A stretch of 64,000 nt of DNA, from NCBI GenBank assembly GCA_963836235.1, contig CAWIIP010000002.1, positions 1,792,001 to 1,856,000 on the forward strand, given 5' to 3'. Made by a program: the position numbers and the translations under genes. Source of the stretch: an uncultured Pseudomonadota bacterium (GTDB lineage Bacteria > Oederibacteriota > Muellerivitia > Muellerivitales > Muellerivitaceae). Positions 16,833-41,798 of the stretch are shown here, one piece after another. Every line of letters begins with the position of its first letter. Positions within the stretch are counted from its first letter, which is position 1. The notes beneath the pieces are model-generated. The model was not told where the DNA came from. It saw nothing but the letters and a program-made list of their open reading frames with translations, and searched no databases.

Positions 16833-16849
16833 AGCAAGAAACGAACCAG
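16833..16849 (-). promoter_or_regulatory. Sigma54 -24/-12 promoter upstream of pirin
   Basis: CTGGTTCGTTTCTTGCT on - strand (GG-N10-GC). Confidence 0.65.
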
Positions 16850-16901
16850 ATAAGGGAATGGTTCTTTTGCTTGTTTTTCGCGGCCGGGTCCGCCAAACCG
16901 A

Positions 16902-16933
16902 ATCAAGTTGAGAAAAAAACGAATCGTTTTGAT
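16902..16933. promoter_or_regulatory. Putative enhancer (UAS) copy 1
   Basis: ATCAAGTTGAG-N10-ATCGTTTTGAT. Confidence 0.65.
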
Positions 16934-16962
16934 CTTTCCATGACCGCCGCGCCCGATGAAGT

Positions 16963-17382
16963 CTAACTTTTTTCAGGCGTGGACAGGACATCGGAGATGG
17001 CCTGGAGAAGCTGCTCCACCTTGAAAGGCTTTCCCAATTTGGGATTGGGAATATTGTTCAAGAATTTCGCCCGCGCGTCGGAAAAGATCCCGCCGGTGAT
17101 GAACACGATCTTTTTTTCCAGGCCGGGATTACTTTTCTCGACCTCCTGGTAAAATTCGACCCCGTTCATGTCGGGCATATTCAAGTCGCTCACGATGACT
17201 TCCACCTTGGTGATTCCGCGGGCGAGGATGTTCAAGGCTTCGACAGCCGATGGGACGGAAATAACGAAATGCCCGTTTGAGCGCAGCATCTCCGTGAACA
17301 AACGCGCGTTCCCGGACTCATCATCCACCAAAAGAACCCGCAGGCCCGGGGCCGGCTTTTCCCCGCCATTCATGACCGTCAT
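16963..17382 (-). CDS. Single-domain response regulator
   Basis: [22 protein letters not shown]. Confidence 0.9.
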   Translation of the reverse strand: MTVMNGGEKPAPGLRVLLVDDESGNARLFTEMLRSNGHFVISVPSAVEALNILARGITKVEVIVSDLNMPDMNGVEFYQEVEKSNPGLEKKIVFITGGIFSDARAKFLNNIPNPKLGKPFKVEQLLQAISDVLSTPEKS

Positions 17383-19718
17383 TTCGCGTCCAACACCTTG
17401 CGGACCCGCTCCGCCAGCTCGTCGTTGGAAAAGGGTTTTTGGATCAAATGGATGGCTAGGTCGATCGTTCCCTCCTCGGACAACACATCCAGCGGATAGC
17501 CGGACATGTAGAGGACAACCATTTTAGGCCTGGTTTTCTTCAACTGGTCCGCCAGTTCCTTGCCGTTCATCTTGGGCATGACGGTGTCGGTCAATAAAAG
17601 GTGGATGACGTCCCCGTACGTCTCCGCCTGCTGGACCGCTTCCACGCCGTTGCGCGCCTGCAGGACGCGGTAGCCGCGGTGCTCCAGCGCCCGTACCATG
17701 ACTTTGCGTACCTGTTCCTCATCCTCCGCCACGAGGACGGTCTCCGATCCGCCGATGGAGGGGGACTCCGCCTTGGGCAGGGCGGCCGCCCCGGCCACTT
17801 CCTTGGCGGCGGGTAAATAAATGGTAAAGGTAGTCCCCATGCCCGGGGCGCTGTAGACCCAGAGATACCCCCCCCATTGGTGCACGATGCCGTAAACGGT
17901 CGCCAAGCCCAGGCCCGTTCCTTTTTCCCCCTTGGTGGTGAAAAAGGGCTCGAAGAGATGCTTCTGGGTTTCGTCGTCCATCCCGGTGCCCGTGTCCGTC
18001 ACCGAAAGGCTCACATAGGCGCCGGAGGGGATAGTGACTCCCTTAATCTCGAGGGCCCCGGCCAGCTCGATGTTTTTAGTGGCCAGCATCAGCTTTCCCC
18101 CCTTCGGCATGGCGTCCCGGGCGTTCAAGACCAGGTTCAGGATGACCTGCTGGATTTGGCCCGGGTCGGCCTTGACCGACCTCAAGTTCTTCTCCTGGAC
18201 GAGGTCGAAGTTTATGGAAGCGTCGATCAGGCGCTTGAACATCAGGCTCATTTCCGAGCCCATTTCATTGAGGTCGACAAGCTGGGGCTGGGAAATCTGT
18301 TTTTTCCCGAAAGCCAGCAGTTGGCGCGTCAAGTCGGCCCCCCTTTTGACCGCCTTCTCGATTTCCTCCACGTCCAAAAGATGGGGATCGCCCGGCGCCA
18401 GGGCGGCCTTGAGAAAACCGCTGTTCCCCCCGATGGCGCTCAGGAGATTATTGAAGTCGTGGGCCACGCCCCCGGCCAAACGCCCCAGGGCGTCCAGTTT
18501 TTGCGACAGCCGCATCTGCTCCTCGTGTTTTTTCTGGGTTTCCAGGGCGTTCTTTTTCTCCGTGATGTCCCGCGAGATGGAGGAAACGCCGACGATTTTT
18601 CCCAGGGCGTCCTTGATGGGCGACACGGTGACGGCCACTTCGACCATCTCCCCATTCCTCTTCAACAGCGTCGTTTCATAGTTCGAAACGTTCTCCTCTT
18701 TGGTAGCCAGGGCCCTTACTTTTTCCATTTCCATCTTGCGGTCGGTGGGGACGAGGAGGGCGGTGTTTTCCCCCAGGATTTCCTCCGAATGGTAGCCGAA
18801 CATGGTTTCGGCGGCGTGGTTCCAACTGAAAATCTTCCCGTCCAGGTCGCTGCCGATGACGGCGTCGGTGGTCTGTTCCAAAATAGAGGCCAATTGGGAG
18901 AGCGTTTCCTCGGACTTGCGGCGCTCGGTGATGTCCAGGGCCATGCCCATGTTGCCCAGCAGGTTCCCCTTCGAGTCCCGCATGGGGGTGACGTACCATT
19001 CGCACAGGATGGTCTTGCCGTCCTTGCGACGGTGCGCTGAGACCTCCCCCTGAATGGTCTTATCGCCTTTTTGAAGCCGCTCATAGCTGGCCTCGGCCCG
19101 GGATAAGTCGGACGGCGAGATCAGGGTTTCCTCCAGCTTCTTGCCCCGTACTTCATTGAAGAAATAGCCGAAGGTCCGCTCGGCCGCCGGGTTCCAATAG
19201 GTGAAGTGGTTGTCCTTGTCGGCGAGCACGCAGGCAATGGGCATGCATTCCATCTGCAATTGGAGCCGTTCCAAAAGTTCGCTCTTTTCCGCCAAAAGCC
19301 TTTCCTTCACGGCTTCGGCCCTCTCGCTTTCATTGATGTCACGGGCGATCACGGCGGCACCAACGACCCGGTTTTGAGGTTCCTCCAGCGGAGAAACGGT
19401 CAGCGAGAGGAGGACTTCCTTTCCGCTCTTGGGCTGGTGGCTGGTGAGGAAGTTAGCCACCGCTTTTCCTTCCCGGATGGACTCCAAAATCCGTGGAAAC
19501 TCGACCAGGCGGTCCGCCGGGACGATCATGGAAAGGTTTTGGCCGATGATTTCTTTGGGCGTGAAGCCGTAAATCCGTTGGGCGCCGGGGTTCCAGCTTA
19601 ATAAGATGCCGTCCAGGGAGACCGAGTAGATGGCGTCGTTGGAGGATTCGACGATGGAAGCCAGCCGGGCCGCGTCATCGGCGCTGTTTTTATTTTCGAC
19701 GACATTCCCGCTTTTCAT
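17379..19718 (-). CDS. Triple-PAS hybrid sensor histidine kinase
   Basis: Three PAS repeats, AHDFNN H-box, PFFTTK..GTGLGL, C-terminal receiver. Confidence 0.93.
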   Translation of the reverse strand: MKSGNVVENKNSADDAARLASIVESSNDAIYSVSLDGILLSWNPGAQRIYGFTPKEIIGQNLSMIVPADRLVEFPRILESIREGKAVANFLTSHQPKSGKEVLLSLTVSPLEEPQNRVVGAAVIARDINESERAEAVKERLLAEKSELLERLQLQMECMPIACVLADKDNHFTYWNPAAERTFGYFFNEVRGKKLEETLISPSDLSRAEASYERLQKGDKTIQGEVSAHRRKDGKTILCEWYVTPMRDSKGNLLGNMGMALDITERRKSEETLSQLASILEQTTDAVIGSDLDGKIFSWNHAAETMFGYHSEEILGENTALLVPTDRKMEMEKVRALATKEENVSNYETTLLKRNGEMVEVAVTVSPIKDALGKIVGVSSISRDITEKKNALETQKKHEEQMRLSQKLDALGRLAGGVAHDFNNLLSAIGGNSGFLKAALAPGDPHLLDVEEIEKAVKRGADLTRQLLAFGKKQISQPQLVDLNEMGSEMSLMFKRLIDASINFDLVQEKNLRSVKADPGQIQQVILNLVLNARDAMPKGGKLMLATKNIELAGALEIKGVTIPSGAYVSLSVTDTGTGMDDETQKHLFEPFFTTKGEKGTGLGLATVYGIVHQWGGYLWVYSAPGMGTTFTIYLPAAKEVAGAAALPKAESPSIGGSETVLVAEDEEQVRKVMVRALEHRGYRVLQARNGVEAVQQAETYGDVIHLLLTDTVMPKMNGKELADQLKKTRPKMVVLYMSGYPLDVLSEEGTIDLAIHLIQKPFSNDELAERVRKVLDAK

Positions 19719-19785
19719 GAAAGCCCCTTTGAAGGAGATTGAGCCCCTTTTCGGGGCATCCGCAAACTAATTGCACAGGCAATAA

Positions 19786-19801
19786 GGCAAGAAGCAAGCC
19801 A
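19786..19801 (-). promoter_or_regulatory. Sigma54 promoter upstream of hybrid kinase
   Basis: TGGCTTGCTTCTTGCC on - strand. Confidence 0.7.
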
Positions 19802-19861
19802 CGACTTGGGCAGGACCCATATCGTTTTTATGCGTTTCGATGGCCCGGACTTCCAGGAGTG

Positions 19862-19893
19862 ATCAAAACGAGAATTTTTAAGATCATTTTGAT
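19862..19893. promoter_or_regulatory. Putative enhancer (UAS) copy 2
   Basis: ATCAAAACGAG-N10-ATCATTTTGAT. Confidence 0.75.
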
Positions 19894-20000
19894 CGCTCGT
19901 TTCCCGGGCAGGCCTCTTTCAAGTGGAACCTCAAAACCAGCCGTTCTATCTTTTCGAGGCGGGCGGAGGATTTGGAACGATTCCCGTGGGGAAATTCCCA

Positions 20001-20016
20001 CGGTATGGAACTTGCC
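20001..20016 (+). promoter_or_regulatory. Sigma54 promoter upstream of rhodanese
   Basis: CGGTATGGAACTTGCC (GG-N10-GC); a weaker second match follows at 20021. Confidence 0.65.
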
Positions 20017-20064: not shown

Positions 20065-20496
20065 ATGTCGATGACCAAAGAAGCAGTCAAGGACAAGATG
20101 AACGATAAGAACACCCTGGTATTGAACGTCCTGCCGGAAACGGATTTCGCGAAGCTCCACATCAAGGGCTCGGAAAACCTTCCGATGGGACTCAACACGG
20201 CCGATTTCGTCCAGGCGGTCGAGAAAAAATACGGGAAAGACAAGTTCATCATCACCTATTGCGCCGGTTTGACCTGCAACGCAGGCCCGAGCGCGGCCAA
20301 GGCCCTGCAGGAAAAGGGCTTCAAGGCGAATGACTATGCCGGCGGAACCCAGGAATGGTCCGAAGCGGGCTTTCCCACCGAGGGAACCGAAGCGAAGAAC
20401 GTAGCGGCAGTCCCAGCGGCCACGGCAGCTACTCCCGTAGCGACGACCGTTCCGGCACCAGCAGTAGCGGCCGTACCCGCAGGAGCAGCGAAGTAG
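20065..20496 (+). CDS. Rhodanese-like domain protein with Ala/Pro-rich tail
   Basis: HIKGS, ITYCAGLTC active-site Cys, YAGGTQEW. Confidence 0.85.
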   Translation: MSMTKEAVKDKMNDKNTLVLNVLPETDFAKLHIKGSENLPMGLNTADFVQAVEKKYGKDKFIITYCAGLTCNAGPSAAKALQEKGFKANDYAGGTQEWSEAGFPTEGTEAKNVAAVPAATAATPVATTVPAPAVAAVPAGAAK

Positions 20497-20609: not shown

Positions 20610-21164
20610 ATGAAAAAGCTTGCTTTGACAGCCGGTTATTTGCTTGTTTTAGCCTTCGCGAATTCTTTCGCGATCGCCGATGGAGTCGCGCCTGGATTGC
20701 CCGCCCCGCAAATTGGAGTAGAGGGTGGGTTCAACGTCGCGAGCCTGAACGGCCCGGTGGGTGATGTGTACGCCTCCCGTTTGGGATTCGTGGGCGGAGC
20801 TTTCCTGAACTTGCCCCTTGGGCCGACGCTGGCGTTTCAGCCGGAGCTTCTTTACGAACAGAAGGGCGGGCAGGTCAACGGCAATCCTTACCGGCTGGAC
20901 TATGTGGAAGTCCCGGTTCTCCTGGACGTTTCCTTACTGGGGCCCTTGGGAATTCTTTTGGGGCCTTCCTTCGCCGCCAACGTGGACAATCAGGGCGTGA
21001 ACAATCCCAACAGCACGGACGTGGGACTGATCCTGGGCGCCCAATTGGATCTTCTGCCGATTCTTCTCAGCTGCCGCTATGAAGTGGGATTGACGGACGT
21101 GACTACCGATGCCAACGTCCAAAACGGCACCTTCACCTTTTTGGCGGGGCTGTCGTTTATTTAA
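20610..21164 (+). CDS. Outer-membrane beta-barrel (porin/PorT-like) protein
   Basis: Signal peptide, FQPELLYEQKG, LDYVEVPVL, terminal aromatic residue. Confidence 0.75.
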   Translation: MKKLALTAGYLLVLAFANSFAIADGVAPGLPAPQIGVEGGFNVASLNGPVGDVYASRLGFVGGAFLNLPLGPTLAFQPELLYEQKGGQVNGNPYRLDYVEVPVLLDVSLLGPLGILLGPSFAANVDNQGVNNPNSTDVGLILGAQLDLLPILLSCRYEVGLTDVTTDANVQNGTFTFLAGLSFI

Positions 21165-21225: not shown

Positions 21226-21825
21226 ATGTATACCGCGAAAAACTACGACCGGCTGCTGGGCATCCGGGGATTCAGCGACAAACTGCTGAAAGCCCATTTC
21301 AAGCTCTATGAAGGGTACGTCGCCCACATCAACAAGATGATCGACTACCTCAAGGGGGCGGATAAAGAGACCCAGGAATATGACGAAGTCAAAAGAAGGT
21401 TCGGCTGGGAGTTCAACGGTATGCGGCTCCACGAGGCCTATTTCGGGAACATGACGGCGAAGCCCGCCGAACTGGACCCGGACTCGGATTTGGGCGTCCA
21501 GATCGCGGAGTCCTTCGGGTCCATCGAGGCCTGGAAGAAGGATTTCAAGGCGGTTTCCGCGATGCGGGGCATCGGCTGGGCGGTTCTGGCCTGGGACCCG
21601 GAGGGGCATCAGCTCTTCAACGTTTGGATCAACGAGCACGACGCGGGGCACCTGGTTTACTGCGTGTCTATCCTGGTCAACGACGTTTTCGAGCACGCCT
21701 ACCTGGCGGATTACGGTTCGGAGCGGAAAGATTATATCGAAGCCTTCCTGAAGGTGGTTGACTGGGGCGAAGCACAGAAAAGATTCACCGGCATGGCCAA
21801 GCTGACGATCTCCCATGCCTATTGA
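21226..21825 (+). CDS. Fe/Mn superoxide dismutase family protein
   Basis: H (AHFKLY), H (RLHEAYF), FGS, GIGWAVL, DVFEHAY. Confidence 0.88.
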   Translation: MYTAKNYDRLLGIRGFSDKLLKAHFKLYEGYVAHINKMIDYLKGADKETQEYDEVKRRFGWEFNGMRLHEAYFGNMTAKPAELDPDSDLGVQIAESFGSIEAWKKDFKAVSAMRGIGWAVLAWDPEGHQLFNVWINEHDAGHLVYCVSILVNDVFEHAYLADYGSERKDYIEAFLKVVDWGEAQKRFTGMAKLTISHAY

Positions 21826-22099
21826 CCTCAAAGGGGATTGGATCGTGAAAAACCCGAAACCTTTTTCGAAGCGGAAAGTCACGGGCTATCCGCTGACGGT
21901 TCGGAAAGGCGGGGCGGCCCTCCCGGTTTCCGGGCCGGCCGAGGCAAACTATGGTTACGACGCTCCCGCCGACCGGACCGAGATTTTATGGAAATGCCTG
22001 GAATGCGGGGAACTGAAGCCTCGAACCAAGTGGGTCCTGGGCCCCTGCCCCTCCTGTGGCGCGCCGAAATCCCAATTCGTACTGGTGGACGAAGATTGA
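21815..22099 (+). CDS. Rubredoxin-like small protein
   Basis: WKCLECG...CPSCGAPKSQF. Confidence 0.7.
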   Translation: MPIDLKGDWIVKNPKPFSKRKVTGYPLTVRKGGAALPVSGPAEANYGYDAPADRTEILWKCLECGELKPRTKWVLGPCPSCGAPKSQFVLVDED

Positions 22100-22274: not shown

Positions 22275-22290
22275 CGGCACGTTCCTTGCT
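22275..22290 (+). promoter_or_regulatory. Sigma54 promoter upstream of His-rich lipopeptide
   Basis: CGGCACGTTCCTTGCT, near-consensus. Confidence 0.8.
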
Positions 22291-22368: not shown

Positions 22369-22569
22369 ATGAAGTCTAGGAACTTAGGAATCCTCGCCCT
22401 TTTGACGGTGATCATTGGAGCGATTGTATCGGGTTGTTATCCCTATCATCGGGGCGTGGGAGTCGATATCGCGGTTCACGATAATCGGTGGCATTACGAC
22501 CATGATTATGACGATAACTGGCGCGCCCACCACGCGTGGCATGATGACCGGCATGACTGGGATCATTGA
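22369..22569 (+). CDS. Small His/Asp/Trp-rich lipoprotein
   Basis: GGAGGT RBS, lipobox IVSGC, HDNRWHYDHDYDDNWRAHHAWHDDRHDWDH. Confidence 0.75.
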   Translation: MKSRNLGILALLTVIIGAIVSGCYPYHRGVGVDIAVHDNRWHYDHDYDDNWRAHHAWHDDRHDWDH

Positions 22570-22621: not shown

Positions 22622-22656
22622 AAACCGCTCAACCTCAAGGTTGGGCGGTTTTTTTT
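22622..22656 (+). terminator. Intrinsic terminator
   Basis: AAACCGCTCAACC-loop-GGTTGGGCGGTTTTTTTT. Confidence 0.75.
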
Positions 22657-22691: not shown

Positions 22692-22724
22692 ATCAAAGTG
22701 AGAATTTAAAAATATCATTTTGAT
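22692..22724. promoter_or_regulatory. Putative enhancer (UAS) copy 3
   Basis: ATCAAAGTGAG-N11-ATCATTTTGAT. Confidence 0.75.
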
Positions 22725-22765: not shown

Positions 22766-22781
22766 GGGCCCGATTCTTGCT
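22766..22781 (+). promoter_or_regulatory. Sigma54 promoter heading the 22.8 kb gene run
   Basis: GGGCCCGATTCTTGCT. Confidence 0.7.
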
Positions 22782-22837: not shown

Positions 22838-23073
22838 ATGCCTCACTGGGAAATGAACCAATGGGTCGGAAATTGCAAAACCAACCAAGTGGGAACCATC
22901 GCTTCCGACATTTTAAAGGCGGCGGCGGGGACTTCAAGGGTTACCTCATTGTCGTGGAAGAGAAGCGTTATGAAATTTGGGATGAGACAACCTTGGTCTT
23001 GATTCCACGGGAGTCGGTGAAACCCGCCCCGCTGGCCCTGGTTCCAACCGGAGCTTCGGGGGACAAAACATGA
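22838..23073 (+). pseudogene. Frameshifted paralog of 27412..27621 (pseudogene or -1 programmed frameshift)
   Basis: Frame 0 VGNCKTNQVGTIASDILK, then -1 frame GGGGDFKGY..EIWDETTLVL; both halves align to the intact paralog. Confidence 0.75.
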
Positions 23074-23282
23074 TCGGGGGATATTTGCTTTTGTTCATTT
23101 TCCTTTCCGATCTATGGGCCATCTCCACGATCTTCAACAGCGGCGCGCCCCCGGGTTCCAAGGTTTTTTGGTGTCTTCTGGTTTTATTGATCCCGGTTTT
23201 GGGATTCATTGTTTCCTATTTGGCCGGCCCTGAGGACAAGTCTCTCTTGAACGTGGTTAAAAAAACTATTTCTGAAGTGTAG
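23070..23282 (+). CDS. Stand-alone PLDc_N (cardiolipin synthase N-terminal-like) membrane protein
   Basis: DLWAI..KVFWCLLVLLIPVLG..YLAGP. Confidence 0.8.
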   Translation: MIGGYLLLFIFLSDLWAISTIFNSGAPPGSKVFWCLLVLLIPVLGFIVSYLAGPEDKSLLNVVKKTISEV

Positions 23283-23311: not shown

Positions 23312-24079
23312 ATGAAAAATCCAGTATGGGTGATGTTCGCGGTGACCGGGTTGGTGGCTCTTTTGTCTCCCGGGGTTTGGGCCGATCCGGTGGTGGGTTC
23401 CCCGACCGTTACCCACTTCAGCGGCAACCAGTTACAGCAGGGTTCTACCCAATGGTACGAAAAGCCGGCCACCCTTGTGGGTCCGGCGCAGGAGATCGGC
23501 GCCAAGGGCGGTAGGCTCCTGGTCCTACAGACGGGGAGCGTTCTTTACATGGAAGGCGATTCGACCTTGCACAAGTACCAGATGAACGCCAACGCCCTGC
23601 TCGGGTCCGCGGTGGTGAAGGCCCGGGAGGATGAAGACCTTTTGAAAGCCCTCCAGGCTGGACGGGCCGGTTCCATTGTTTTGACCATCCCCGTCGTGAA
23701 TTTCAAATCACGGGAAAAGGGCCTGGACGACAACGCTGATAAGGCCCTCAAAGCCGTAGAAAACCCCAATATCCAGTTTGTGTTGAAGAGTGAAAGCCTC
23801 AAGGCGGGCAAGGAAATGGGTTCCAACCTCCTTACAGCCATAGGAAACCTGACGGTGGCGGGAACCTCCATTCCCGTCACCTTGTCCGGCGACGCCGTGA
23901 TCCAGGGAGAGCGGGTCGAGTTTAAAGGGGTCCAAAACCTGAAGATGAGCGATTTTAAAATCACTCCTCCTTCCGTTTCCATTTTGATCGTCTCCATCAC
24001 CTGCAAGGACGAAATCACGGTCCATTACGATGTTATCTTTGGGCCGAAGAATAAAAGCCGTACAGAAACGAAAAAGTAA
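23312..24079 (+). CDS. YceI-like lipid/polyisoprenoid-binding secreted protein
   Basis: Signal peptide, GDSTLH, GNLTVAG, LKMSDFKITPP. Confidence 0.8.
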   Translation: MKNPVWVMFAVTGLVALLSPGVWADPVVGSPTVTHFSGNQLQQGSTQWYEKPATLVGPAQEIGAKGGRLLVLQTGSVLYMEGDSTLHKYQMNANALLGSAVVKAREDEDLLKALQAGRAGSIVLTIPVVNFKSREKGLDDNADKALKAVENPNIQFVLKSESLKAGKEMGSNLLTAIGNLTVAGTSIPVTLSGDAVIQGERVEFKGVQNLKMSDFKITPPSVSILIVSITCKDEITVHYDVIFGPKNKSRTETKK

Positions 24080-32183: not shown

Positions 32184-32191
32184 CCTCTTAA

Positions 32192-33529: not shown

Positions 33530-33952
33530 TTATTTCCAAGTCCGTCCCCGGGTTGAACTGTCGACCGACCACTTGCCCCCGCCCTTGGTGGCGATAAAGA
33601 GGAACAAGAAGCAGTAAAGCACCGCCAGCTCGCCGTGGTTGACGATGGGGAAAAAGTTGTTATCGGTCGCGAACTTCCAATGGAATTGGAAATAGGCCAC
33701 CGCCATTTGGCCGCTGGCCAGGAAGGCGGCCAGGTGGGTGAGAAAGCCCGCCAAAATCATCAGCCCGCAAACCAGCTCAATCATGCCGCCGAACCAAAGT
33801 TCGGACCCGACCGGAGGCCTCATGTTGGGGTCGGTCAATAGCCCTAAAATCTTCTGCGCCCCGTGGAACGAGAATAAAAACCCGGCCATGATCCTCAATA
33901 AGCTATAGGCTTCTTCCGAATACTTCGAAAATGAATTTCCGATTTTCATCAT
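33530..33952 (-). CDS. DoxX family membrane protein
   Basis: LLRI..HGAQK, AAFLASGQMAVAYF, NHGELAVLYC. Confidence 0.9.
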   Translation of the reverse strand: MMKIGNSFSKYSEEAYSLLRIMAGFLFSFHGAQKILGLLTDPNMRPPVGSELWFGGMIELVCGLMILAGFLTHLAAFLASGQMAVAYFQFHWKFATDNNFFPIVNHGELAVLYCFLFLFIATKGGGKWSVDSSTRGRTWK

Positions 33953-34016
33953 TTGTCCCGCCTCCTTAAGTTTTGATAAGTGCCTTCATTTTGATTCACG
34001 ATCCGCAGCCCGGGAT

Positions 34017-34256
34017 TTAATACCGGTCGTTCACATGGGCCACCCGGATATTGTTGATGACCTGGTGAACCCCGCCGATGCCCTGAACCAGGGTGGTGAT
34101 CGCCCGCTTGTCCTCGTAATCGTTGTTGGTGCCCGACAGGTGAACCACGCCGTCCTTCACTTGGACGTGCATGTGCTCGCCCATTTGCCGGATTCGGCTG
34201 GTGATCAGGGATTCCAGCTCGACATCGTTTGAGTTCGAATGTGTTTCGTGTGCCAT
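34017..34256 (-). CDS. BON domain protein
   Basis: VQVKDGVVHLSG..GVHQVINNIRV. Confidence 0.85.
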   Translation of the reverse strand: MAHETHSNSNDVELESLITSRIRQMGEHMHVQVKDGVVHLSGTNNDYEDKRAITTLVQGIGGVHQVINNIRVAHVNDRY

Positions 34257-34316
34257 TTTAAACCTTTCAAATCTTATTTGTGCCGCGACTCAAACAACTA
34301 TCCAATCCATCCGGCG

Positions 34317-35015
34317 TCAAAGTGCGAAAAAGCTGATACCCGCCTGCAAAGGGATAAAAACCGAAGGATTCGGCAAGGGAATGCCCAAGCCTTTGGGGGA
34401 CGTGAAATCGATGTCGACCCTCGACTGCAGGAAAACCGCCATGTCGCCGGAAAAGCGGTAAAGAACTCCCGCGCCCGGCGCCAAATAGAAGTCCATTTCG
34501 GCTTCGTCGATCTTAGCCGTGGGGTCTCCGGGGGCGTTGTTCTGGACGTAGGTGTTCAGGGCGACGCCGGCCCCTCCGAAGACATAGGGGCGAAAGAGGC
34601 CGTCGCCGAAGGTCACCCGGAGAATGGCGACCAGGGGAATATAGGCCAAGAGGGCGTTCGTCGCGCCGGAGGAGGGGGCGATGTTGTATTGGTAATAACC
34701 GGTGCCGATGAAGACGCAAAAAGTCCTGTCGAGGCGATAGCCGATGTTGATGTCGCCCCCCAGACCCAGGGCAGGATTCACCATACTGCTGAAGGAAGGA
34801 ATGGAGAAACTGCCGTCGACTTGTTCCACCCATTTTTGGTCCTGAGTCAAGGCGGGTTGATCGGGATTAGGGCTTGAGACGCTTTGGCTTTGAGGGGAGG
34901 ACGGGGCATTTTGATCTTGAATCGAATAGGTCGGCGTTTGAGTGGGGTTGTTCTGGGCTTGAACGGTTGAAGCGGCCAGAACCGATAGGAAAATCATGGA
35001 TGTTAAAAATTTCAT
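34317..35015 (-). CDS. Outer-membrane beta-barrel protein
   Basis: Signal peptide, RPYVFGGAG, terminal GISF. Confidence 0.7.
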   Translation of the reverse strand: MKFLTSMIFLSVLAASTVQAQNNPTQTPTYSIQDQNAPSSPQSQSVSSPNPDQPALTQDQKWVEQVDGSFSIPSFSSMVNPALGLGGDINIGYRLDRTFCVFIGTGYYQYNIAPSSGATNALLAYIPLVAILRVTFGDGLFRPYVFGGAGVALNTYVQNNAPGDPTAKIDEAEMDFYLAPGAGVLYRFSGDMAVFLQSRVDIDFTSPKGLGIPLPNPSVFIPLQAGISFFAL

Positions 35016-35142
35016 TCTTTACTCCTCTGGGTAAAGCCAGGAAATGGAAGACCGCGATGCCGGAAGAAAGGGGCCGGGTGGCGGAAAAGTATTTCGCCCC
35101 ACCCGATTTGGGCCCCTGCCGCTTCGGCCATCTGTATCACCC

Positions 35143-35352
35143 TTAATTATGACCGCCGACACCGATCCTCATGTCCACTCCACTGCGGGGCTGGTCATGA
35201 TGGTCGTAATAATGACGGTGATGATGGTGGTGATGGTAATAATGCCTTTCGGGCACCACGATAACGGCGCCACCACGAACTTCATCGGCCGCGGTGATTC
35301 CGGTGACCGCTAAAAACAGCAGTCCCAGCGAAACCTTCAATAAACTTTTCAT
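35143..35352 (-). CDS. Small secreted His-rich peptide
   Basis: AAGGAG RBS, signal peptide, RHYYHHHHHHRHYYDHHD. Confidence 0.75.
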   Translation of the reverse strand: MKSLLKVSLGLLFLAVTGITAADEVRGGAVIVVPERHYYHHHHHHRHYYDHHDQPRSGVDMRIGVGGHN

Positions 35353-35387
35353 ACATTCTCCTTATTCGTAAGTCTGGTTGAGTTAAG

Positions 35388-35403
35388 AGCAAGAAGCGAG
35401 CCG
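35388..35403 (-). promoter_or_regulatory. Sigma54 promoter upstream of His-rich peptide
   Basis: CGGCTCGCTTCTTGCT on - strand. Confidence 0.7.
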
Positions 35404-35465
35404 CCCCCTTGGGCGGCATTCGACCGCCTTTTGAACCTTCCGGGAACTTGACGCCCCCGAAAGGA

Positions 35466-35498
35466 ATCAAAATGAGGGCTCGGTGCGATCATTTTGAT
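35466..35498. promoter_or_regulatory. Putative enhancer (UAS) copy 4
   Basis: ATCAAAATGAG-N11-ATCATTTTGAT. Confidence 0.8.
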
Positions 35499-35604
35499 CG
35501 GGATCGGCGCGGCCTTTGCTTGGGGAGAAAATTCCTCGACGCCTCCGGCGGGCTTTTCCTTTTATCGAGAGGGGTTTGGGCGATTCCGGGCGCTTGAAAG
35601 GGCG

Positions 35605-35620
35605 GGGCACGTTCCTTGCT
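35605..35620 (+). promoter_or_regulatory. Sigma54 promoter upstream of ice-binding protein
   Basis: GGGCACGTTCCTTGCT, same core as 22275. Confidence 0.8.
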
Positions 35621-35684
35621 CTAACCCCTGTTCTGGATTTCAGGATTGGTTTTGGGATTCAAATAAATATTTCAGGAAGTCAAA

Positions 35685-36446
35685 GTGAAAAAGATTCTAG
35701 TTGGTTTAATTTTGATGGCATCGCTTCCGATCATTTTCATGGCTGGATGCGGCAGTTCAAACCCTTCAGGCCCGACGAGTTCGGCAACCGCGACTCCGGC
35801 GCCCTATACGACGCCCCAAAAGACGCCTATGGCGATGGTCGTCCTTAATTCGGCCGCGAATTACGTGATCTTGTCCGCGACCGGGATCACCAACAGCGGA
35901 CCCAGCACCACTTGCGGCGGTTACGGGGTCTATCCGGATGGACTGACTTCGGTGACCGGGTCACCGGCTATCGTGGAGAGCTGCGGCGGGGATATCGATG
36001 TCGCCGACGGTGCGGCCAATACCGCTGAAGGGGATTTGGGCACCGCCTATACGGACGCCATGGGACGGACCGGTGGGGCCATCCTGCCGCCCGGAGCCGA
36101 TATCGGAGGCCAAACTCTTTATCCCGGACTTTACACTGAAACGGGCAACCTAAATATCGCCTCGGCCGATCTTCACCTGAGCGGCAATGGCGTCTTTATT
36201 TTCAAGGTCAGCGGCAACCTGGTCGTGGGACCGGGCCGACAGGTCATCCTGGCCAATAGCGCGAGCGCCGCCAATGTTTTTTGGGCGGTGGCCGGTTACG
36301 GAGCCTTGAATACCACGGTTGCTTTCAAAGGAAACATCATGGCCCATACAGCCGTGACCCTCAATACGGGGGCCACGCTGACGGGTAGGGCTTTGGCTGA
36401 GACCGCGAATGTGACTTTGCTGACCAATACCATCACCCATCCCTAA
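35685..36446 (+). CDS. Ice-binding-like DUF3494 lipoprotein
   Basis: Lipobox MAGC; AYTDAMGR, GQTLYPGLY, VFIF, AANVFWAV, FKGNIMA, GRALA. Confidence 0.88.
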   Translation: MKKILVGLILMASLPIIFMAGCGSSNPSGPTSSATATPAPYTTPQKTPMAMVVLNSAANYVILSATGITNSGPSTTCGGYGVYPDGLTSVTGSPAIVESCGGDIDVADGAANTAEGDLGTAYTDAMGRTGGAILPPGADIGGQTLYPGLYTETGNLNIASADLHLSGNGVFIFKVSGNLVVGPGRQVILANSASAANVFWAVAGYGALNTTVAFKGNIMAHTAVTLNTGATLTGRALAETANVTLLTNTITHP

Positions 36447-36541
36447 GGGATGGTTTTTAAAGTAAATATTGCCAAGCGGCCTAGCTGGGAGTTCTCCCCG
36501 CCAGGCTGCCTAAATTTGTTGGGATTTGAAAGGAAAAAGAA

Positions 36542-36988
36542 ATGAAAAAGGGCACAAAAGCAGGGGTTTTTTTAAGCTTCGGGGCGTTTTTAACCTTGGG
36601 AATGATGGCCTTCCTATTCTCCGGTTGCGGGGAGAAGAAGGTCGAGAATACCGAGGTGCCGAAGGCGCCGGAAACCAACGAGGCGGCGAAGGTCGAAACG
36701 GCCGCACCGGCTCCGGTGGAGAAGTACGTGGTCAAGGAAGGGGACACCTTGTGGGCGATCTCCAACCAATCGGGAAATTACTCCGATTCTTTCGAGTGGC
36801 CGCTGATCTTCAAGACGAACCGGGATGAAATCGTCGATCCGGATCAGATCACTCCCGGACAGGTTCTCGTCATCCAAAGGGGACAAACGGCGGAGCAAAC
36901 CGAGCATACCCGCCAGCTAGCCAGCGACACGCCGGCTTTCGTGTCCCACGAAGAGCCGAGGACGACCCTTCCGGTTAATTACTTCTAG
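36542..36988 (+). CDS. LysM domain lipoprotein
   Basis: FSGC lipobox; YVVKEGDTLWAIS..WPLIFKTN..DPDQITPGQVL. Confidence 0.9.
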   Translation: MKKGTKAGVFLSFGAFLTLGMMAFLFSGCGEKKVENTEVPKAPETNEAAKVETAAPAPVEKYVVKEGDTLWAISNQSGNYSDSFEWPLIFKTNRDEIVDPDQITPGQVLVIQRGQTAEQTEHTRQLASDTPAFVSHEEPRTTLPVNYF

Positions 36989-37019
36989 AGCTTCACGCCC
37001 ATCAGCGAAAAGCTTCATA

Positions 37020-37053
37020 ACCACGGATGAAACCATCCGTGGTTGATTTTTTT
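37020..37053 (+). terminator. Intrinsic terminator
   Basis: ACCACGGATG-AAAC-CATCCGTGGT followed by T-run. Confidence 0.65.
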
Positions 37054-37073
37054 ACCCCGAATTGAGGAGTCCC

Positions 37074-38300
37074 ATGAACGCATTACCGAAGACCGAATTG
37101 GAAAATACGGAGAAGGACACGAAGCGGGTCATTCGATTTGAACTGGCGCCCTCGACCATGATCACGCTGGTTCTGGTCCTCGCCGGCTTATGGCTGTTGT
37201 TCAAGCTTTTGCCCGTCATTCTCGTGCTGGTCGCGGCTTTTTTTATCGTGGGAACCCTGAACCCGGCCGTTCATTGGCTGGAAAGCAAACGGGTCAGCCG
37301 GATGCTGGCGATCGGGATTGTTTTCGGGTCGCTCCTGGTCGTCACCCTGACGATGGCGATATTGACGGTTCCGGCGCTTTTGGCACAGGCCTCGTCGATC
37401 CTGGAACAGGAACCGGCTTTGCGAGCCCAATTGGCGGACCGGCTTTCCGGCTTTCCCCTCAGCGAGGCCTTGGGGAAATGGCTGCGTAATTTCAAGTATG
37501 GCGGTCCTATCAGCACGGCGGGCGCCACGGCCTTCGCCTATTCCATGGACGCCCTGGCTTTCGTCACTTACAGCCTCAGCGCCATCTTCCTGGCCCTCTA
37601 TATCATGCTCGACCGCGACCGGCTGCGGGGCGGGCTTTTCGCCGCCGTTCCCCGGTCGCACCACATCCGGCTTTCCCGGGTGATGATGAACCTGGAAACC
37701 ATCGTGGGCGCTTATATCCGGGGCCAGCTGATCACGAGCGCGGCTATCGGCGTTTTCATCCTGATCCTCCTGGTGGCCTGCGGGGTCGAGAACGCCGTGG
37801 CGCTGGCGGTCTTCGGTGCCGTCGCCGACATCCTGCCCTATATCGGCATCTTCCTCCCGATCGCCGCGGCGATCCTATCGGCGGTTCCCCGGGGCCCGGT
37901 GGTCACGATCGTCGTCCTCGCCCTCATGTTCATTTACATGGAATTCGAGAGCCGGGTGCTGGTGCCGAAGGTTTACGGCCAGGCCCTGCGCCTGCCCTCC
38001 ACGGTAATCCTTTTTTCGCTTTTGGCCGGGGGGACTTTGGCGGGAATCACGGGCGCCCTGCTGGCGCTTCCTTTCGCGGCGGCCGCCATGATGCTGATTG
38101 AGGAACTGAGGGTGCAATTGCCCGGTGAACAGGCGCAAGTGGCGGATGAGGCGTTGAAAGAGAAGGATGACCGGGGCGAAGAGGAATATGAACGCCGGAC
38201 CGAGGGGGTTTCGGCCGAGAAATCCGCCGCCATCGCGGTGGAGATATCCGGGGACCGGGTGAAGGAAGAAAGTGAGTCTTTGAAAATGGTGGAGCCGTGA
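37074..38300 (+). CDS. AI-2E family transporter
   Basis: GAYIRGQ, LPYIG, LVPKVYG, GALLALP. Confidence 0.9.
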   Translation: MNALPKTELENTEKDTKRVIRFELAPSTMITLVLVLAGLWLLFKLLPVILVLVAAFFIVGTLNPAVHWLESKRVSRMLAIGIVFGSLLVVTLTMAILTVPALLAQASSILEQEPALRAQLADRLSGFPLSEALGKWLRNFKYGGPISTAGATAFAYSMDALAFVTYSLSAIFLALYIMLDRDRLRGGLFAAVPRSHHIRLSRVMMNLETIVGAYIRGQLITSAAIGVFILILLVACGVENAVALAVFGAVADILPYIGIFLPIAAAILSAVPRGPVVTIVVLALMFIYMEFESRVLVPKVYGQALRLPSTVILFSLLAGGTLAGITGALLALPFAAAAMMLIEELRVQLPGEQAQVADEALKEKDDRGEEEYERRTEGVSAEKSAAIAVEISGDRVKEESESLKMVEP

Positions 38301-38355
38301 AGGCGTTGGAATGGCGGCCGGGAATGTTTAAAAAAATCATCGGGAAAGAGGAGAG

Positions 38356-39153
38356 ATGATCATGCTTGAGAAAAAACAACAGAAAGCGCTTCAGGACAAA
38401 CTGGTCAGCATGGCCAAAAAGGTTTATCGTGGCCCTTGGGAATTGGGGAAGTTTTCCAAGAACGAAAGAGCCAACGTCATCATCAATAACATCGAGAAGA
38501 TGCCCCATATTTTCGTCATGGCCTGCCTCTTGGGCCGCCAGTTCCACGATGAGAAGGCCTGGGAAACGATGGCTTACCTGGAAGAAAGGACCGGCACGCT
38601 CGACATCCAGAAATTGAGCCGCCTCACCTTGGGCGACTGGGAAGAGGCTTTCACGAAACCCACCCCCTTACACGGCTTTCCACACGAAATGGCCCGCACG
38701 GTTATGGCGGCCGTCCAACGTATCGTCAAGGAATATGGCGGCAATGCGTCGCGTTTATGGAGTGACAAGCCCTCCAGCGCCACGATGATCAAACGGTTCC
38801 TGGAATTTGAGGGAATCGGCCCCAAGGTTTCGACCATGGCCGCTAATATTCTGGCGCGCTATTTTAAAATCAAGATGAGCGATTATTATTCCATTGAAGT
38901 GACGGTGGATGGGCGCATGAAGCGGGTTCTTTCCCGAATGGGCATCGTCGACTCCAAAAAACCAAGATATATCCAATTGACCGTCCGGGAAATGTATCCG
39001 AAGTACCCGGGGATTTTTGACCCGATTTTTTGGGAAATTGGAAAGTTCCATTGTTTTCAGGTTCATCCGGATTGCGCCGGGTGCCCGGCTAATGGATTGT
39101 GCCAGTACAGCCTGGTTCAGGGAAAAAAGGAACGACCGGTGTTGATCCGTTGA
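38356..39153 (+). CDS. HhH-GPD / endonuclease III-like DNA glycosylase
   Basis: EGIGPKV HhH, VD..KRV, C-x6-C-x2-C-x5-C Fe-S motif. Confidence 0.85.
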   Translation: MIMLEKKQQKALQDKLVSMAKKVYRGPWELGKFSKNERANVIINNIEKMPHIFVMACLLGRQFHDEKAWETMAYLEERTGTLDIQKLSRLTLGDWEEAFTKPTPLHGFPHEMARTVMAAVQRIVKEYGGNASRLWSDKPSSATMIKRFLEFEGIGPKVSTMAANILARYFKIKMSDYYSIEVTVDGRMKRVLSRMGIVDSKKPRYIQLTVREMYPKYPGIFDPIFWEIGKFHCFQVHPDCAGCPANGLCQYSLVQGKKERPVLIR

Positions 39154-40265
39154 AGCGCCGACGGTTTTATTTCACATCGAGTCGAAAGACGAGGGGGGTC
39201 GGCTTTTTCCTGGCCCTTGTCTCACTTTGGGTCGGGGGATGCAGCACCCTTCCCGCTCATTACGTGCCGATCTTGCCGGCCCCGGTGACGAGTTTCCCTC
39301 CGGTCAAACCCGGTCTGGTTCGCTTGCCGGTGGATATCGTCTTTCCCAGCGGCGGCGACTTCCTCCAGCATCTTTCCAACCTTTTCAAGGGCGGGCTCCA
39401 GCAACTGGTGCCGGATATCAGCCGGGCGCCGGGGCTAGACGTGAAATCCCACGTGGCCAGCCTCTGGGCGACCATCGAGGCACCGATCTTTTTGGATAAG
39501 GACCTTTGGCTTGTCATCCACCCCCGGACTTTGGCCATCGGGATGATGAGGACCGACCTGAAGCGGATCGCGACCCTCCATAGCGTTTTGGAAATGACCG
39601 CCAACCCCGAAATTATTTTCGGGCCCAAGCCCCTGGCTGGCCCCACGGCCATGCCCCCACTCGGCCGCTTTCGGCCGGGTCCTGGCACCTTCCGGGCGAT
39701 GAGCAATGTCCGCATCAGTTATAAAGAAGCCAATGACTATTTCCGGGACCCCCGGTTGAAGATTATCGGCATGGTTTTGCCCGGGACGGGGGGCCAGAAG
39801 GTGACGCTCGATGGGATCCGGTTGTACGGATCGGGCGGGAAGGTGATCGTCGAAGTGAAGCTTCATTACAACCCGCTGATCGTCAATTTAGGGACCAAAC
39901 CGGCCAAACTGACGATCTACCTCCGGGGGACTCCCCGATTTCTTCCGCAAAAACGCATGTTCGACATGCCGGACCTTGATTACGACATCAAGTCCAGCGA
40001 CCTGATGGTCCAAGTGGCCGACTGGCTCTTCAAGTCGGATTTCAGAAACCAATTGCGCAAAATTGCCGTGCTTCCCATCGGCCCCAAAGTGGATCTGATC
40101 AAGGCAAAAGTAAACAAGGCCCTCAACCGGCCCCTGGACCGATTCGCCAGCCTCCAGACCCAGGTGAATTATTTAAGGATATTGGACGGGTTCGCGGACA
40201 ATGAGGGAATCGAAGTGCGCGTGGCCATCCGGGGGACGGCCACCCTCGAAGTGACCTGGAATTAA
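39150..40265 (+). CDS. DUF4403-like lipoprotein
   Basis: VGGC lipobox; long beta-rich ORF; TTG start overlapping previous stop (uncertain). Confidence 0.6.
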   Translation: MKRRRFYFTSSRKTRGVGFFLALVSLWVGGCSTLPAHYVPILPAPVTSFPPVKPGLVRLPVDIVFPSGGDFLQHLSNLFKGGLQQLVPDISRAPGLDVKSHVASLWATIEAPIFLDKDLWLVIHPRTLAIGMMRTDLKRIATLHSVLEMTANPEIIFGPKPLAGPTAMPPLGRFRPGPGTFRAMSNVRISYKEANDYFRDPRLKIIGMVLPGTGGQKVTLDGIRLYGSGGKVIVEVKLHYNPLIVNLGTKPAKLTIYLRGTPRFLPQKRMFDMPDLDYDIKSSDLMVQVADWLFKSDFRNQLRKIAVLPIGPKVDLIKAKVNKALNRPLDRFASLQTQVNYLRILDGFADNEGIEVRVAIRGTATLEVTWN

Positions 40266-40316
40266 GAAGGTCCGTTGGGTTCGGGACTTCTCCGGGGAAA
40301 CTTCAGCGCCCAAGCC

Positions 40317-40649
40317 TCAGGGTTTAATGGAAAGAGAACGGGTTCTTTTCTTAAGGACCGGCTTTTTGCCTCTCAGAGAGGACCAAAGGCTTCCCGCGAG
40401 GATTCCGCCGACGGCGGCCCAGGCGACAGATTTTTTCGGGTTTTCCTCGATGAACTGTTCGGCCTTTTTTTTCTGTTTTTTCAAGTTTCCCAACATATCC
40501 CGCATCGTGATTTTTGACAGGCCCAACTCGGCCAGAAACCCCTTGAAATTTTTACCCACGGCTTTTTTTTGCTTCAACGATAAAATTTTATTTTTGCCTT
40601 CGTTTAAATAATCGAAGAGTTTCTTTTTGACCGGTTCACGCGTGGACAT
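40317..40649 (-). CDS. ElaB/YqjD (DUF883)-like tail-anchored protein
   Basis: FIEENPKKSVAWAAVGGILAG C-terminal motif. Confidence 0.65.
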   Translation of the reverse strand: MSTREPVKKKLFDYLNEGKNKILSLKQKKAVGKNFKGFLAELGLSKITMRDMLGNLKKQKKKAEQFIEENPKKSVAWAAVGGILAGSLWSSLRGKKPVLKKRTRSLSIKP

Positions 40650-40666
40650 CTTTTGTTCCCCTATCT

Positions 40667-40981
40667 TTATTTTGTGGATGGAATCAACAACCTCAAAACC
40701 AACAATCCCAGAAGACCGCCGCCGATAAAAACGACCCCGCGCGGGATGCCGCAATCATCCATCGCTACGAAAAATAAGCCGAGCGTGACGCAGGTCAGGC
40801 TCATGGAAATCGAAAAGACCACGACGGCCAGCTTCACCACCCACCTTTGAAATTCCCCTTTGTGTTTTTCCAAGGACCTTTCGGCTCGATCCTCGATGGA
40901 ACCGATGTTTTTTAAGGCTAAAAAGGCCATTTCCCGGAGGCGGCTGAAAAGTGGAATGACCGCCGTTGTTTTTCGTGACAT
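40667..40981 (-). CDS. Small two-TM protein (YqjE/holin-like)
   Basis: Two hydrophobic segments, next to ElaB-like gene. Confidence 0.55.
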   Translation of the reverse strand: MSRKTTAVIPLFSRLREMAFLALKNIGSIEDRAERSLEKHKGEFQRWVVKLAVVVFSISMSLTCVTLGLFFVAMDDCGIPRGVVFIGGGLLGLLVLRLLIPSTK

Positions 40982-41043
40982 TTTTGCTTTCTGACGGGCT
41001 CGTCCCCATCTTCAAGGGTCCGACCGATGACGACTTCTAACAA

Positions 41044-41059
41044 AGCAAGAAGCAGGCCG
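41044..41059 (-). promoter_or_regulatory. Sigma54 promoter
   Basis: CGGCCTGCTTCTTGCT on - strand. Confidence 0.7.
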
Positions 41060-41121
41060 CGCGTTGAACCGCTCTTAACGGCCTTCTTTGGAACCCTTCG
41101 CGGTTCATCATTCGGAAAGGA

Positions 41122-41154
41122 ATCAAAATGAGAGTCCGGAATAATCATTTTGAT
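41122..41154. promoter_or_regulatory. Putative enhancer (UAS) copy 5
   Basis: ATCAAAATGAG-N11-ATCATTTTGAT. Confidence 0.8.
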
Positions 41155-41258
41155 CGGCTATCGGTGATAGGGCCGCTGAAAATATTTTTCCACGGCAAAG
41201 AATAGTCTTTTTTCGAGGCAGTCATGGGATTTACGGCTGCCTTCGACCCATCGCCACA

Positions 41259-41274
41259 CGGCATTGAACTTGCT
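41259..41274 (+). promoter_or_regulatory. Sigma54 promoter
   Basis: CGGCATTGAACTTGCT. Confidence 0.75.
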
Positions 41275-41308
41275 CTATTCATGTTAGGAAAATTCAAGGA
41301 GGAAGCTC

Positions 41309-41719
41309 ATGAACGGTTCAACTTATTTAGCCCTGTCCATTTTGCTGATGGGGTCCGCCGGTCTGGCTTCGGCCCAAATCATGGTCGCGACGCCATCGGC
41401 GCCGGCATCAATGACAACATCGGCGATACCGATTACGGGAGCCGCCGCCGATGGACCCGCCTCAAAGACCGAAATAAACGCGCGGATCACGGACCAAGAA
41501 ACCCGGATTGACGCGGATTCGAAAGTGGGCAAGCTGACCCTGGAGCAGGCGAAGCCCCTCAAGTGCTCCTTGAAAAAGATCAAGAAGCAGAAGAAGGCCG
41601 ATTACGCTGAAAATGGTAAAAATGAATTGGGCGGCGACCAAAAAACCGATTTAAACAACCAGTTGGACGCGAACGAGAAAAACCTCACCACCACCAATGG
41701 AGTTAAAAATACGAATTGA
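41309..41719 (+). CDS. Secreted helical hypothetical protein
   Basis: AGGAGG RBS, signal peptide, QETRI..GKLT..A. Confidence 0.75.
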   Translation: MNGSTYLALSILLMGSAGLASAQIMVATPSAPASMTTSAIPITGAAADGPASKTEINARITDQETRIDADSKVGKLTLEQAKPLKCSLKKIKKQKKADYAENGKNELGGDQKTDLNNQLDANEKNLTTTNGVKNTN

Positions 41720-41782
41720 CCCGGCTGGAATGTCCGGTCCTCACTTGAGGGAATAGGGGTGATGTTTTCGCGGATTGGCGGA

Positions 41783-41798
41783 CGGTACGGAAGTTGCT
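41783..41798 (+). promoter_or_regulatory. Sigma54 promoter
   Basis: CGGTACGGAAGTTGCT. Confidence 0.7.

Follow-up and report, generated by a model that had tools for sequence, protein, structure and literature searches.

Bacterial enhancer-binding proteins (bEBPs) of the XylR/DmpR type, represented by XylR of the TOL plasmids and by DmpR/CapR, MopR, and PoxR in Pseudomonas, Acinetobacter, and Ralstonia, are aromatic-responsive activators of sigma-54 promoters, and their circuit logic (a bEBP, paired upstream sites, and -24/-12 promoters) is classical. In another sigma-54 circuit, PspF/psp of the Enterobacteria, a bEBP drives small envelope-stress proteins from upstream sites, its activator PspF being devoid of a sensor domain and restrained by PspA. 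For DmpR, the available part of one report describes an extended region that holds the upstream activating sequences UAS1 and UAS2 plus a site for IHF (PMC13682980). Here, we analyze a 64,000-nucleotide stretch from the genome of an uncultured bacterium (GenBank assembly GCA_963836235.1, contig CAWIIP010000002.1, positions 1,792,001 to 1,856,000; hereafter the window, with coordinates counted from its first base), in which copies of a double-box enhancer accompany -24/-12 promoters. We consider it probable that one family of candidate division FCPU426 possesses a sigma-54 regulon whose core is this region, whose enhancers are bound by the XylR/DmpR-type activator encoded at position 14230, and whose output consists of stress and envelope functions.

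The assembly that contains the window (G000) comprises 5 contigs and 3,967,731 bases, and its nearest relatives belong to candidate division FCPU426/Candidatus Firestonebacteria, all of them metagenome-assembled and mostly from bog, palsa, and soil, with no cultured representative among their records. A first-pass annotation of the window had pointed to five double boxes with half-sites 21 to 22 bp apart. All five are exact matches, on the plus strand, to the pattern ATCAARNNGAG-N10/11-ATCRTTTTGAT, with box starts 21 or 22 bp apart (Table 1), as against no match in 100 dinucleotide shuffles of the window. Genome-wide, the exact box occurs only six times, five times in the window and once on another contig (C1:398788-398819), and when as many as 3 mismatches are tolerated across both 10-nt halves, the search returns 9 sites, i.e., three weaker extras. 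In short, the double box is sharply defined and rare, and its copies are strongly concentrated in the window.

The two 11-bp pseudo-palindromic boxes that make up each enhancer, ATCAAAAYGAG and ATCRTTTTGAT, are inverted copies of one word (ATCAAAAYGA followed by G or T), and each is in itself a short palindrome, ATCA-N3-TGAT. Their spacing of 21 to 22 bp places the boxes on one face of the helix, and the double boxes have the arrangement typical of upstream activating sequences, i.e., paired inverted-repeat sites on one helix face about 80 to 200 bp from a promoter. A site of the FNR/CRP type was considered and rejected, since the box reads ATCA-N3-TGAT and not TTGAT-N4-ATCAA, the FNR consensus. 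The sixth enhancer, on C1, and the 3' end of a gene for an activator paralogue are about 720 bp apart; this enhancer has a left-type promoter 94 bp away that would drive a DUF2934 gene.

A plain count of consensus promoters proved too noisy (1,020 matches of at least 9/12 across the genome) and was replaced by a 24-nt matrix trained on 32 promoters, all from genomes other than G000; these were box-adjacent and had been selected with a -24/-12 consensus. Applied to G000, it yields 23 matches of at least 15 bits, ten of which are the very promoters named in the first-pass annotation, all present where they had been placed, including 22275+ and 41783+. Those ten fall within 25 kb, or 0.6% of the 3,968-kb genome, and at a threshold of 18 bits they account for 7 of the 8 matches that remain. 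Downstream of every one, at 25 to 130 nt, an open reading frame (ORF) begins, in most cases preceded by a Shine-Dalgarno-like sequence. The sequence features of a sigma-54 promoter are present: GG and GC lie 10 nt apart in a TGGCAC-N5-TTGCW-like sequence that is kept at orthologous positions. The genome also encodes the cognate sigma factor, with an rpoN gene recognized by its Sigma54_DBD domain (C5:123290-123766; E value of 2.1e-63) in an open frame of 510 aa.

Enhancers and promoters are joined by a conserved geometry. Counting distinct exact boxes in G000 and its relatives, 25 of 29 have a promoter (at least 9/12, with GG-N10-GC/TTGC) within 220 bp, as do 12 of 14 additional boxes recovered with a looser pattern. 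Measured from the -12 element to the enhancer center, 13 of 16 promoters on one side lie at 83 to 95 bp and 17 of 21 on the other at 113 to 140 bp, so that distances across the relatives cluster at about 92 bp and about 136 bp. In the window, the four leftward promoters lie at 83, 90, 92, and 92 bp and their four rightward counterparts at 71, ~137, 136, and 134 bp, and three enhancers (19862, 35466, and 41122) each stand between two promoters, as had been claimed for divergent pairs. The presence of rpoN, the frequency with which boxes adjoin promoters, and the conserved distances together give comparative support to the proposed pairing of this enhancer with sigma-54 promoters.

The module is mostly polar: all 15 promoters of the GGCYYRTTTCTTGC type, which have a gap of 53 to 65 bp, adjoin the box ending in GAG, the short-gap promoters (41 to 53 bp; n = 4) are on the opposite side, and a few enhancers have two long arms. 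The interval between enhancer and long-arm promoter contains A-tracts, T-tracts, and a recurring T-rich ...ATCGAGGC segment. In several genomes, this segment and the A-tracts that precede it are positioned about 55 bp upstream of the long-arm promoters (in the window, at 19930-19960, 35550-35575, and 41205-41225), and it may bend the DNA or be bound by an architectural or second regulatory protein.

The proposed activator is the product of the sole bEBP gene in the window, one of about nine clear bEBP genes in the genome. Its Pfam domains are XylR_N (PF06505; E value of 2.2e-26, residues 11 to 102) and V4R (PF02830; E value of 3.3e-08, residues 121 to 178), both above the curated cut-offs, followed by Sigma54_activat (E value of 5.6e-73), AAA_lid_14, and HTH_8 (E value of 7.7e-13), with a GSFTGA loop and intact Walker motifs. 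The protein aligns with the DmpR/CapR structure 6IY8 over residues 12 to 471 and shares 35% identity, along its whole length, with the XylR-like regulator encoded next to xylS on plasmid pD2RT; its nearest plasmid-borne relatives are 36 to 42% identical. The zinc ligands Cys/Glu/Cys/Cys (VCW..., ...E-x2-C-x7-C) align with those of DmpR and XylR, the effector-pocket Trp (the equivalent of Trp128; W of TW/EW) is conserved, and the position of DmpR His100 is occupied by Tyr. According to the available part of PMC7264223, from which we also take the roles of the DmpR zinc-ligand and pocket residues, His100 positions the phenol hydroxyl in DmpR and is replaced by Tyr in XylR. The structural features that delimit the XylR/DmpR subfamily are present, i.e., the sensor domains, the zinc ligands and Trp, an AAA+ domain with a GAFTGA-type loop, and a Fis-type helix-turn-helix (HTH), making the 14230 protein a credible ligand-gated member of this class.

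Relatives of this protein that reach at least 74% identity over the full length form a distinct group, all other bEBPs reaching at most 52% identity and aligning in the ATPase domain only. The recognition helix, (G)VATLYRKLK, is kept with no more than one substitution in 20 of 22 distinct C termini (the other two look frameshifted), and such a shared helix fits a single box common to all orthologues and paralogues. Genomes contain 2 to 4 paralogues (4 copies in G018; 3 each in G001, G002, G006, and G076), and that of G000, at C1:399540-401144, is 77% identical to the 14230 protein. The sensor domains of the paralogues are 65 to 88% identical to that of the 14230 protein and their recognition helices are the same, which suggests that several sensors may act on one enhancer. 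A 58%-identical homologue in a metagenome-assembled genome from outside the phylum (L061) has a different HTH and, in the 10 kb to each side of it, no boxes or promoters of this type; the circuit is therefore not shared by that genome. We also observed a Crp-like regulator (cNMP_binding and HTH_Crp_2 domains) behind a box-linked promoter at L054:12458-13153, and another in G000 (L001:12363-13106), 1.1 kb upstream of the C1 activator paralogue; these genes hint at a second regulatory layer.

The genes behind the promoters look like a set of general stress and envelope type rather than a catabolic pathway. Products encoded in the window include pirin, rhodanese, BON, DoxX, Transgly_assoc, YceI, and ice-binding-like proteins (Pfam assignments), and the same module in relatives precedes genes for ice-binding-like proteins (6 further cases), DUF2934 (3, plus one in G000), pirin, CsbD, Band 7, and Zn-dependent alcohol dehydrogenase (Zn-ADH; 2 each for these four), along with single cases of PPK2, PRC-barrel, Crp-like, HAD, LysM, and Transgly_assoc proteins, a receiver domain, and a HAMP-rich protein. 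CsbD, GlsB/YeaQ-type, BON/OsmY-like, PRC-barrel, and pirin proteins and small DUF families are typical of general stress regulons, and it is on account of this association that we call the output general-stress-like. No oxygenase, ring-cleavage, or other aromatic catabolic genes occur among the approximately 55 first genes behind box-linked promoters, and control of a catabolic operon, one of the marks of the XylR/DmpR subfamily, is seen neither in the window nor among the first genes of the relatives.

The regulon could instead be real but serve as a specific detoxification response to one toxic aromatic, quinone, or alcohol, a reading that concerns physiological role only and is compatible with the mechanism that we propose. 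Its appeal is that the sensor keeps the pocket features of XylR and DmpR and that two pirin/quercetinase-like proteins, DoxX, Zn-ADH, SRPBCC, YceI, rhodanese, and SOD-like proteins are among the members; however, the CsbD, DUF2934, BON, Transgly_assoc, Band 7, PPK2, PRC, ice-binding-like, and His-rich small proteins have no link to detoxification, and an oxygenase or ring-cleavage pathway is missing from the first genes. A dedicated detoxification role is, on this balance, possible but unlikely.

The assignment of the boxes to the 14230 protein draws on the upstream region of its own gene, which includes two single boxes. Comparing 20 distinct activator upstream regions, we find a box 82 to 104 bp before a conserved TTGGTTCAACC core in 15 and another box 162 to 174 bp before this core in 10, and both emerge as islands of conservation in an alignment of 13 such regions. 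A conserved GAGTACAAT, possibly a -10 element, overlaps the box at 13987. The activator probably autoregulates its gene through these two boxes, which are also the strongest sequence-level tie between the motif and its putative binding protein.

Between these boxes and the start codon lies a conserved element of about 85 nt, composed of CCGGCCCCGG.GAATGTC...GGAATCCGAACCAAG, a loop, and TTTGGTTCAACCAACTCGGCC. It is present in 2 copies in G000, the second of which (C1:398586-398662, minus strand) precedes an alpha-glucan phosphorylase gene by about 250 nt and lies about 140 bp from the sixth enhancer, and BLAST matches upstream of the activator gene here and in relatives come from 32 loci, several of which are the same place twice. 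The structure predicted by RNAalifold has an outer stem of 4 bp and a hairpin of 8 bp, with three compensated pairs and several G-U pairs, and neither this element nor any other part of the window attains the gathering score of an Rfam family. The element could be a structure of the 5' untranslated region or a promoter/operator.

Box and activator are also distributed together. The exact box is present in 11 of 41 genomes, namely G000 and 10 of 24 other members of its family, and in none of 16 genomes of other families; the reversed pattern, used as a control, is found in 0 of the 41. When 99 genomes of the phylum were searched with a loosened box pattern and with the 230-aa sensor domain of the activator, the box was detected in 20 and the sensor domain in 19, with all 19 shared; the twentieth box genome (G050) has one stray match and no activator orthologue. 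All 19 carriers belong to one family, within which genera g2, g3, g5, g10, and g12 mix carriers and non-carriers (the latter 82 to 98% complete), box and activator always occurring together. In at least 8 genomes, a gene for the activator or a paralogue shares a contig with a box no more than about 10 kb away (G001, G002, G006, G010, G012, G016, and G018, and G000 on C1), and boxes are found as well on contigs that have no activator gene (e.g., seven contigs of G018). The co-occurrence in 19 genomes, the proximity of the genes, the boxes before the activator's own gene, and its standing as the only bEBP of the window provide comparative support for the earlier suggestion that the 14230 protein would be the driver.

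If the boxes were instead read by another bEBP, by an IHF-like architectural protein, or by the Crp-like regulators of the regulon, boxes and promoters would still be real and the XylR-type gene would be a mere neighbor. The abundance of bEBP genes in the genome leaves room for such a binder, but other bEBP types are present in all 41 genomes, boxless ones included, and their distribution does not follow the boxes. Crp-like genes are indeed found in suggestive positions (downstream of a box-linked promoter in L054, adjacent to the C1 paralogue), although activation of sigma-54 promoters is not known for Crp-type proteins. The box shares ATCAA with the IHF consensus but is without the TTR part, and a general architectural protein does not explain why the box is absent from 79 of the 80 genomes that have no XylR-type gene. 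Linkage in an island could produce the co-occurrence of box and activator; the boxes are, however, conserved in front of the XylR-type gene itself. We judge a different binder to be improbable.

Across genera, the boxes and -24/-12 elements are fixed whereas the enhancer spacer and the flanks vary freely, a pattern that is the footprint of functional sites and not of recent duplication. That boxes and promoters constitute a duplicated promoter cassette or small repeat spread in the island, with no common regulatory meaning, is accordingly very hard to credit, even though the left-hand promoters are alike and some intergenic stretches share more (e.g., the T-rich segment), since the modules also precede different, unrelated genes at distances kept within a few base pairs.

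Several points weigh against a stress regulon driven by the 14230 protein. XylR/DmpR relatives in the available parts of the cited papers control catabolic operons, and a stress regulon is not what the family predicts; the genome has 15 sigma-70-family genes, so the sigma-54 circuit is not necessarily its principal stress switch. Genomes of relatives do not count as independent samples, and box and activator are partly in one island, so linkage contributes to their co-occurrence, which could in part stem from an island that is gained or lost as a block. Two promoters that score well, 22275+ and 41783+, lie more than 230 bp from any box, the nearest enhancer being about 420 bp downstream of the former and about 650 bp upstream of the latter; similar small genes of relatives (His-rich in L036, GlsB-type in L053) are preceded by a box at about 136 bp, and the two promoters may be served by these more distant enhancers or by read-through. 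Conversely, 4 of the 29 exact and 2 of the 14 loose boxes have no recognizable promoter. The 11-bp palindrome ATCA-N3-TGAT appears short for a dimer with Fis-type HTHs, making the stoichiometry uncertain, and the case for a ligand consists of the conserved pocket and zinc residues.

With these points in mind, we still favor a circuit in which the 14230 protein, and probably also its C1 paralogue with the same recognition helix, would bind the boxes. A signal, most likely a small hydrophobic or aromatic ligand, would reach the N-terminal XylR_N/V4R zinc domain and, as expected for this class of protein, relieve the inhibition of the AAA+ ATPase. The bound oligomer would then loop to sigma-54 holoenzyme at promoters on its two sides, at about 92 bp and about 136 bp, opening both, such that one enhancer would fire two divergent transcription units, and control of the activator gene would probably proceed via its two single upstream boxes. 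The enhancer and the XylR-like activator most likely form a previously undescribed stress switch, and the regulatory finding as such is real, conserved, and directly testable.

A broader scheme can be put forward only tentatively. Sigma-54 and a small set of paralogous, ligand-sensing XylR-type activators with one recognition helix in common might run a general stress or dormancy program of this phylum without a dedicated alternative sigma factor, integrating several chemical signals at shared boxes, with each polar enhancer firing divergent units at ~92 and ~136 bp; the structured leader of the activator genes, shared with the glycogen phosphorylase gene, might tie stress to the mobilization of carbon stores.

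Table 1. Coordinates of candidate regulatory elements and transcription units in the window. Scores in bits refer to the trained promoter matrix; Pfam marks gene assignments from that database.
Feature	Position	Strand	Remarks
Single box upstream of bEBP gene, ATCAAAATGAG	13908-13918	+	
Single box upstream of bEBP gene, ATCAAATTGAT	13987-13997	+	
Conserved ~85-nt leader or promoter element, between boxes and bEBP start codon	14028..14112	+	
XylR/DmpR-type bEBP gene, proposed activator	14230..15870	+	546 aa; true start maybe ATG 14242
Sigma-54 promoter, pirin-like gene 15997-16695(-)	16833..16848	-	19.4 bits; 83 bp from enhancer center; Pfam
Enhancer 1 (double box)	16902..16933	+	Exact pattern match
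Sigma-54 promoter, PAS hybrid histidine kinase 17379-19718(-) and receiver-only regulator 16963-17382(-)	19786..19801	-	17.8 bits; Pfam
Enhancer 2 (double box), common to divergent promoter pair	19862..19893	+	Exact pattern match
Sigma-54 promoter, rhodanese 20065-20496 and outer-membrane beta-barrel 20610-21164	20001..20016	+	15.7 bits; Pfam
Further genes of unit 20001+: SOD-like; DUF7130/rubredoxin-like	21226-21825; 21815-22099		
Sigma-54 promoter, His-rich small secreted protein 22369-22569	22275..22290	+	29.2 bits; no nearby box
Terminator-like hairpin after gene 22369-22569	22622-22651		
Enhancer 3 (double box)	22692..22724	+	Exact pattern match
Sigma-54 promoter, small ORFs, PLDc_N 23070-23282, and YceI 23312-24079	22766..22781	+	28.8 bits; Pfam
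Further genes of unit 22766+: 467-aa protein; SRPBCC; Zn-ADH	24109-25512; 25594-26205; 26261-27337		
Further genes of unit 35388-: DoxX; BON	33530-33952; 34017-34256	-	Pfam
Sigma-54 promoter, His-rich small protein 35143-35352(-) and 232-aa protein 34317-35015(-)	35388..35403	-	21.8 bits
Enhancer 4 (double box), common to divergent promoter pair	35466..35498	+	Exact pattern match
Sigma-54 promoter, ice-binding-like lipoprotein 35685-36446, possibly LysM 36542-36988	35605..35620	+	31.7 bits; Pfam
Terminator-like hairpins in unit 35605+	36437-36453; 37018-37045		
Sigma-54 promoter, small membrane protein 40667-40981(-)	41044..41059	-	22.3 bits
Enhancer 5 (double box), common to divergent promoter pair	41122..41154	+	Exact pattern match
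Sigma-54 promoter, secreted 136-aa protein 41309-41719	41259..41274	+	19.6 bits
Sigma-54 promoter, Transgly_assoc (GlsB/YeaQ-like) 41849-42124	41783..41798	+	15.1 bits; no nearby box; Pfam

The first-pass annotation had united dozens of genes in one program. Ten transcription units are supported (Table 1). Strong terminator-like hairpins directly after 22569, 36446, and 36988 suggest that some units are short; the unit of promoter 22766+ may extend to a hybrid kinase gene at 28645-31026. A search for sequencing runs with window 34000-42200 returned no RNA run. With these hairpins, and with a sigma-70-type promoter ahead of the HigB/HigA pair at 32155, we put the size of the regulon in the window at between 10 and about 30 genes.

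Some further features of the window and its relatives deserve mention. Small secreted proteins rich in His, Asp, and Tyr (with runs such as HHHHHH) are encoded at 22369-22569(+), at 35143-35352(-), and, in a relative, at L036:20603-20818; they recur as first genes behind the module, match no Pfam family, and are possible periplasmic metal binders. The middle of the island, between the long plus-strand run and the second pirin gene, holds a toxin-antitoxin pair (HigB-like toxin and HTH antitoxin, 32155-32803) preceded by a perfect sigma-70-type promoter (TTGACA-17-TATAAT). A segment of low GC content at 59897-62330 (GC of 0.40 in 60 to 62 kb; two ORFs with third-position GC of 0.30 to 0.35) adjoins an ORF whose N terminus, judged by eye, resembles an IS30-type transposase, and this segment is probably a recent insertion unrelated to the regulon.

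In the literature searched, we encountered no XylR-type activator that runs a dispersed stress regulon and no FCPU426 regulon, though absence there is not proof; the available part of PMC12316311 names V4R merely within a list of sensor domains. No site sequence is given in the available parts of PMC13682980 and PMC3063778, and XylR sites could not be placed reliably in the xylS-xylR intergenic region of pD2RT. Given this, and given that the HTH helices differ, we make no claim that the boxes resemble XylR sites.

What the locus offers is a testable circuit obtained from sequence alone, with a named activator, an enhancer of 32 to 33 bp, ten promoters here, and several dozen in relatives. It extends the XylR/DmpR class, which is widely used for aromatic biosensors, to a multi-operon stress and envelope output, and it supplies a natural case of one enhancer and two divergent sigma-54 promoters in fixed geometry that would be useful for looping studies. 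Should its ligand be found, the circuit would reveal which conditions these bacteria of peat and soil sense as stress. Compared with the known systems, its position is as follows.

(i) XylR and DmpR share with the 14230 protein an XylR_N/V4R sensor, an AAA+ domain with a GAFTGA-type loop, and a Fis-type HTH and, in the circuit proposed here, action from paired upstream sites about 100 to 150 bp before a -24/-12 promoter. The present system differs in its HTH (NRRKAADLMGVGVATLYRKLK, versus NISQAARLLGLTRPAMAYRLK in the XylR-like regulator of pD2RT), in its proposed targets, at least 10 dispersed units of stress and envelope type instead of one catabolic operon, in having one enhancer regularly serve two divergent promoters at fixed, unequal distances, and in possessing 2 to 4 paralogues per genome with the same recognition helix.

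(ii) Unlike PspF, the activator described here has a ligand-type sensor domain, and no PspA-family gene was seen behind the boxes.

(iii) The regulons of SigB in Bacillus, RpoS in Enterobacteria, and EcfG in Alphaproteobacteria overlap with this one in their protein families, but they depend on the replacement of sigma factors through partner switching, whereas the FCPU426 regulon would rely on enhancer-dependent activation of sigma-54 by a ligand-type bEBP.

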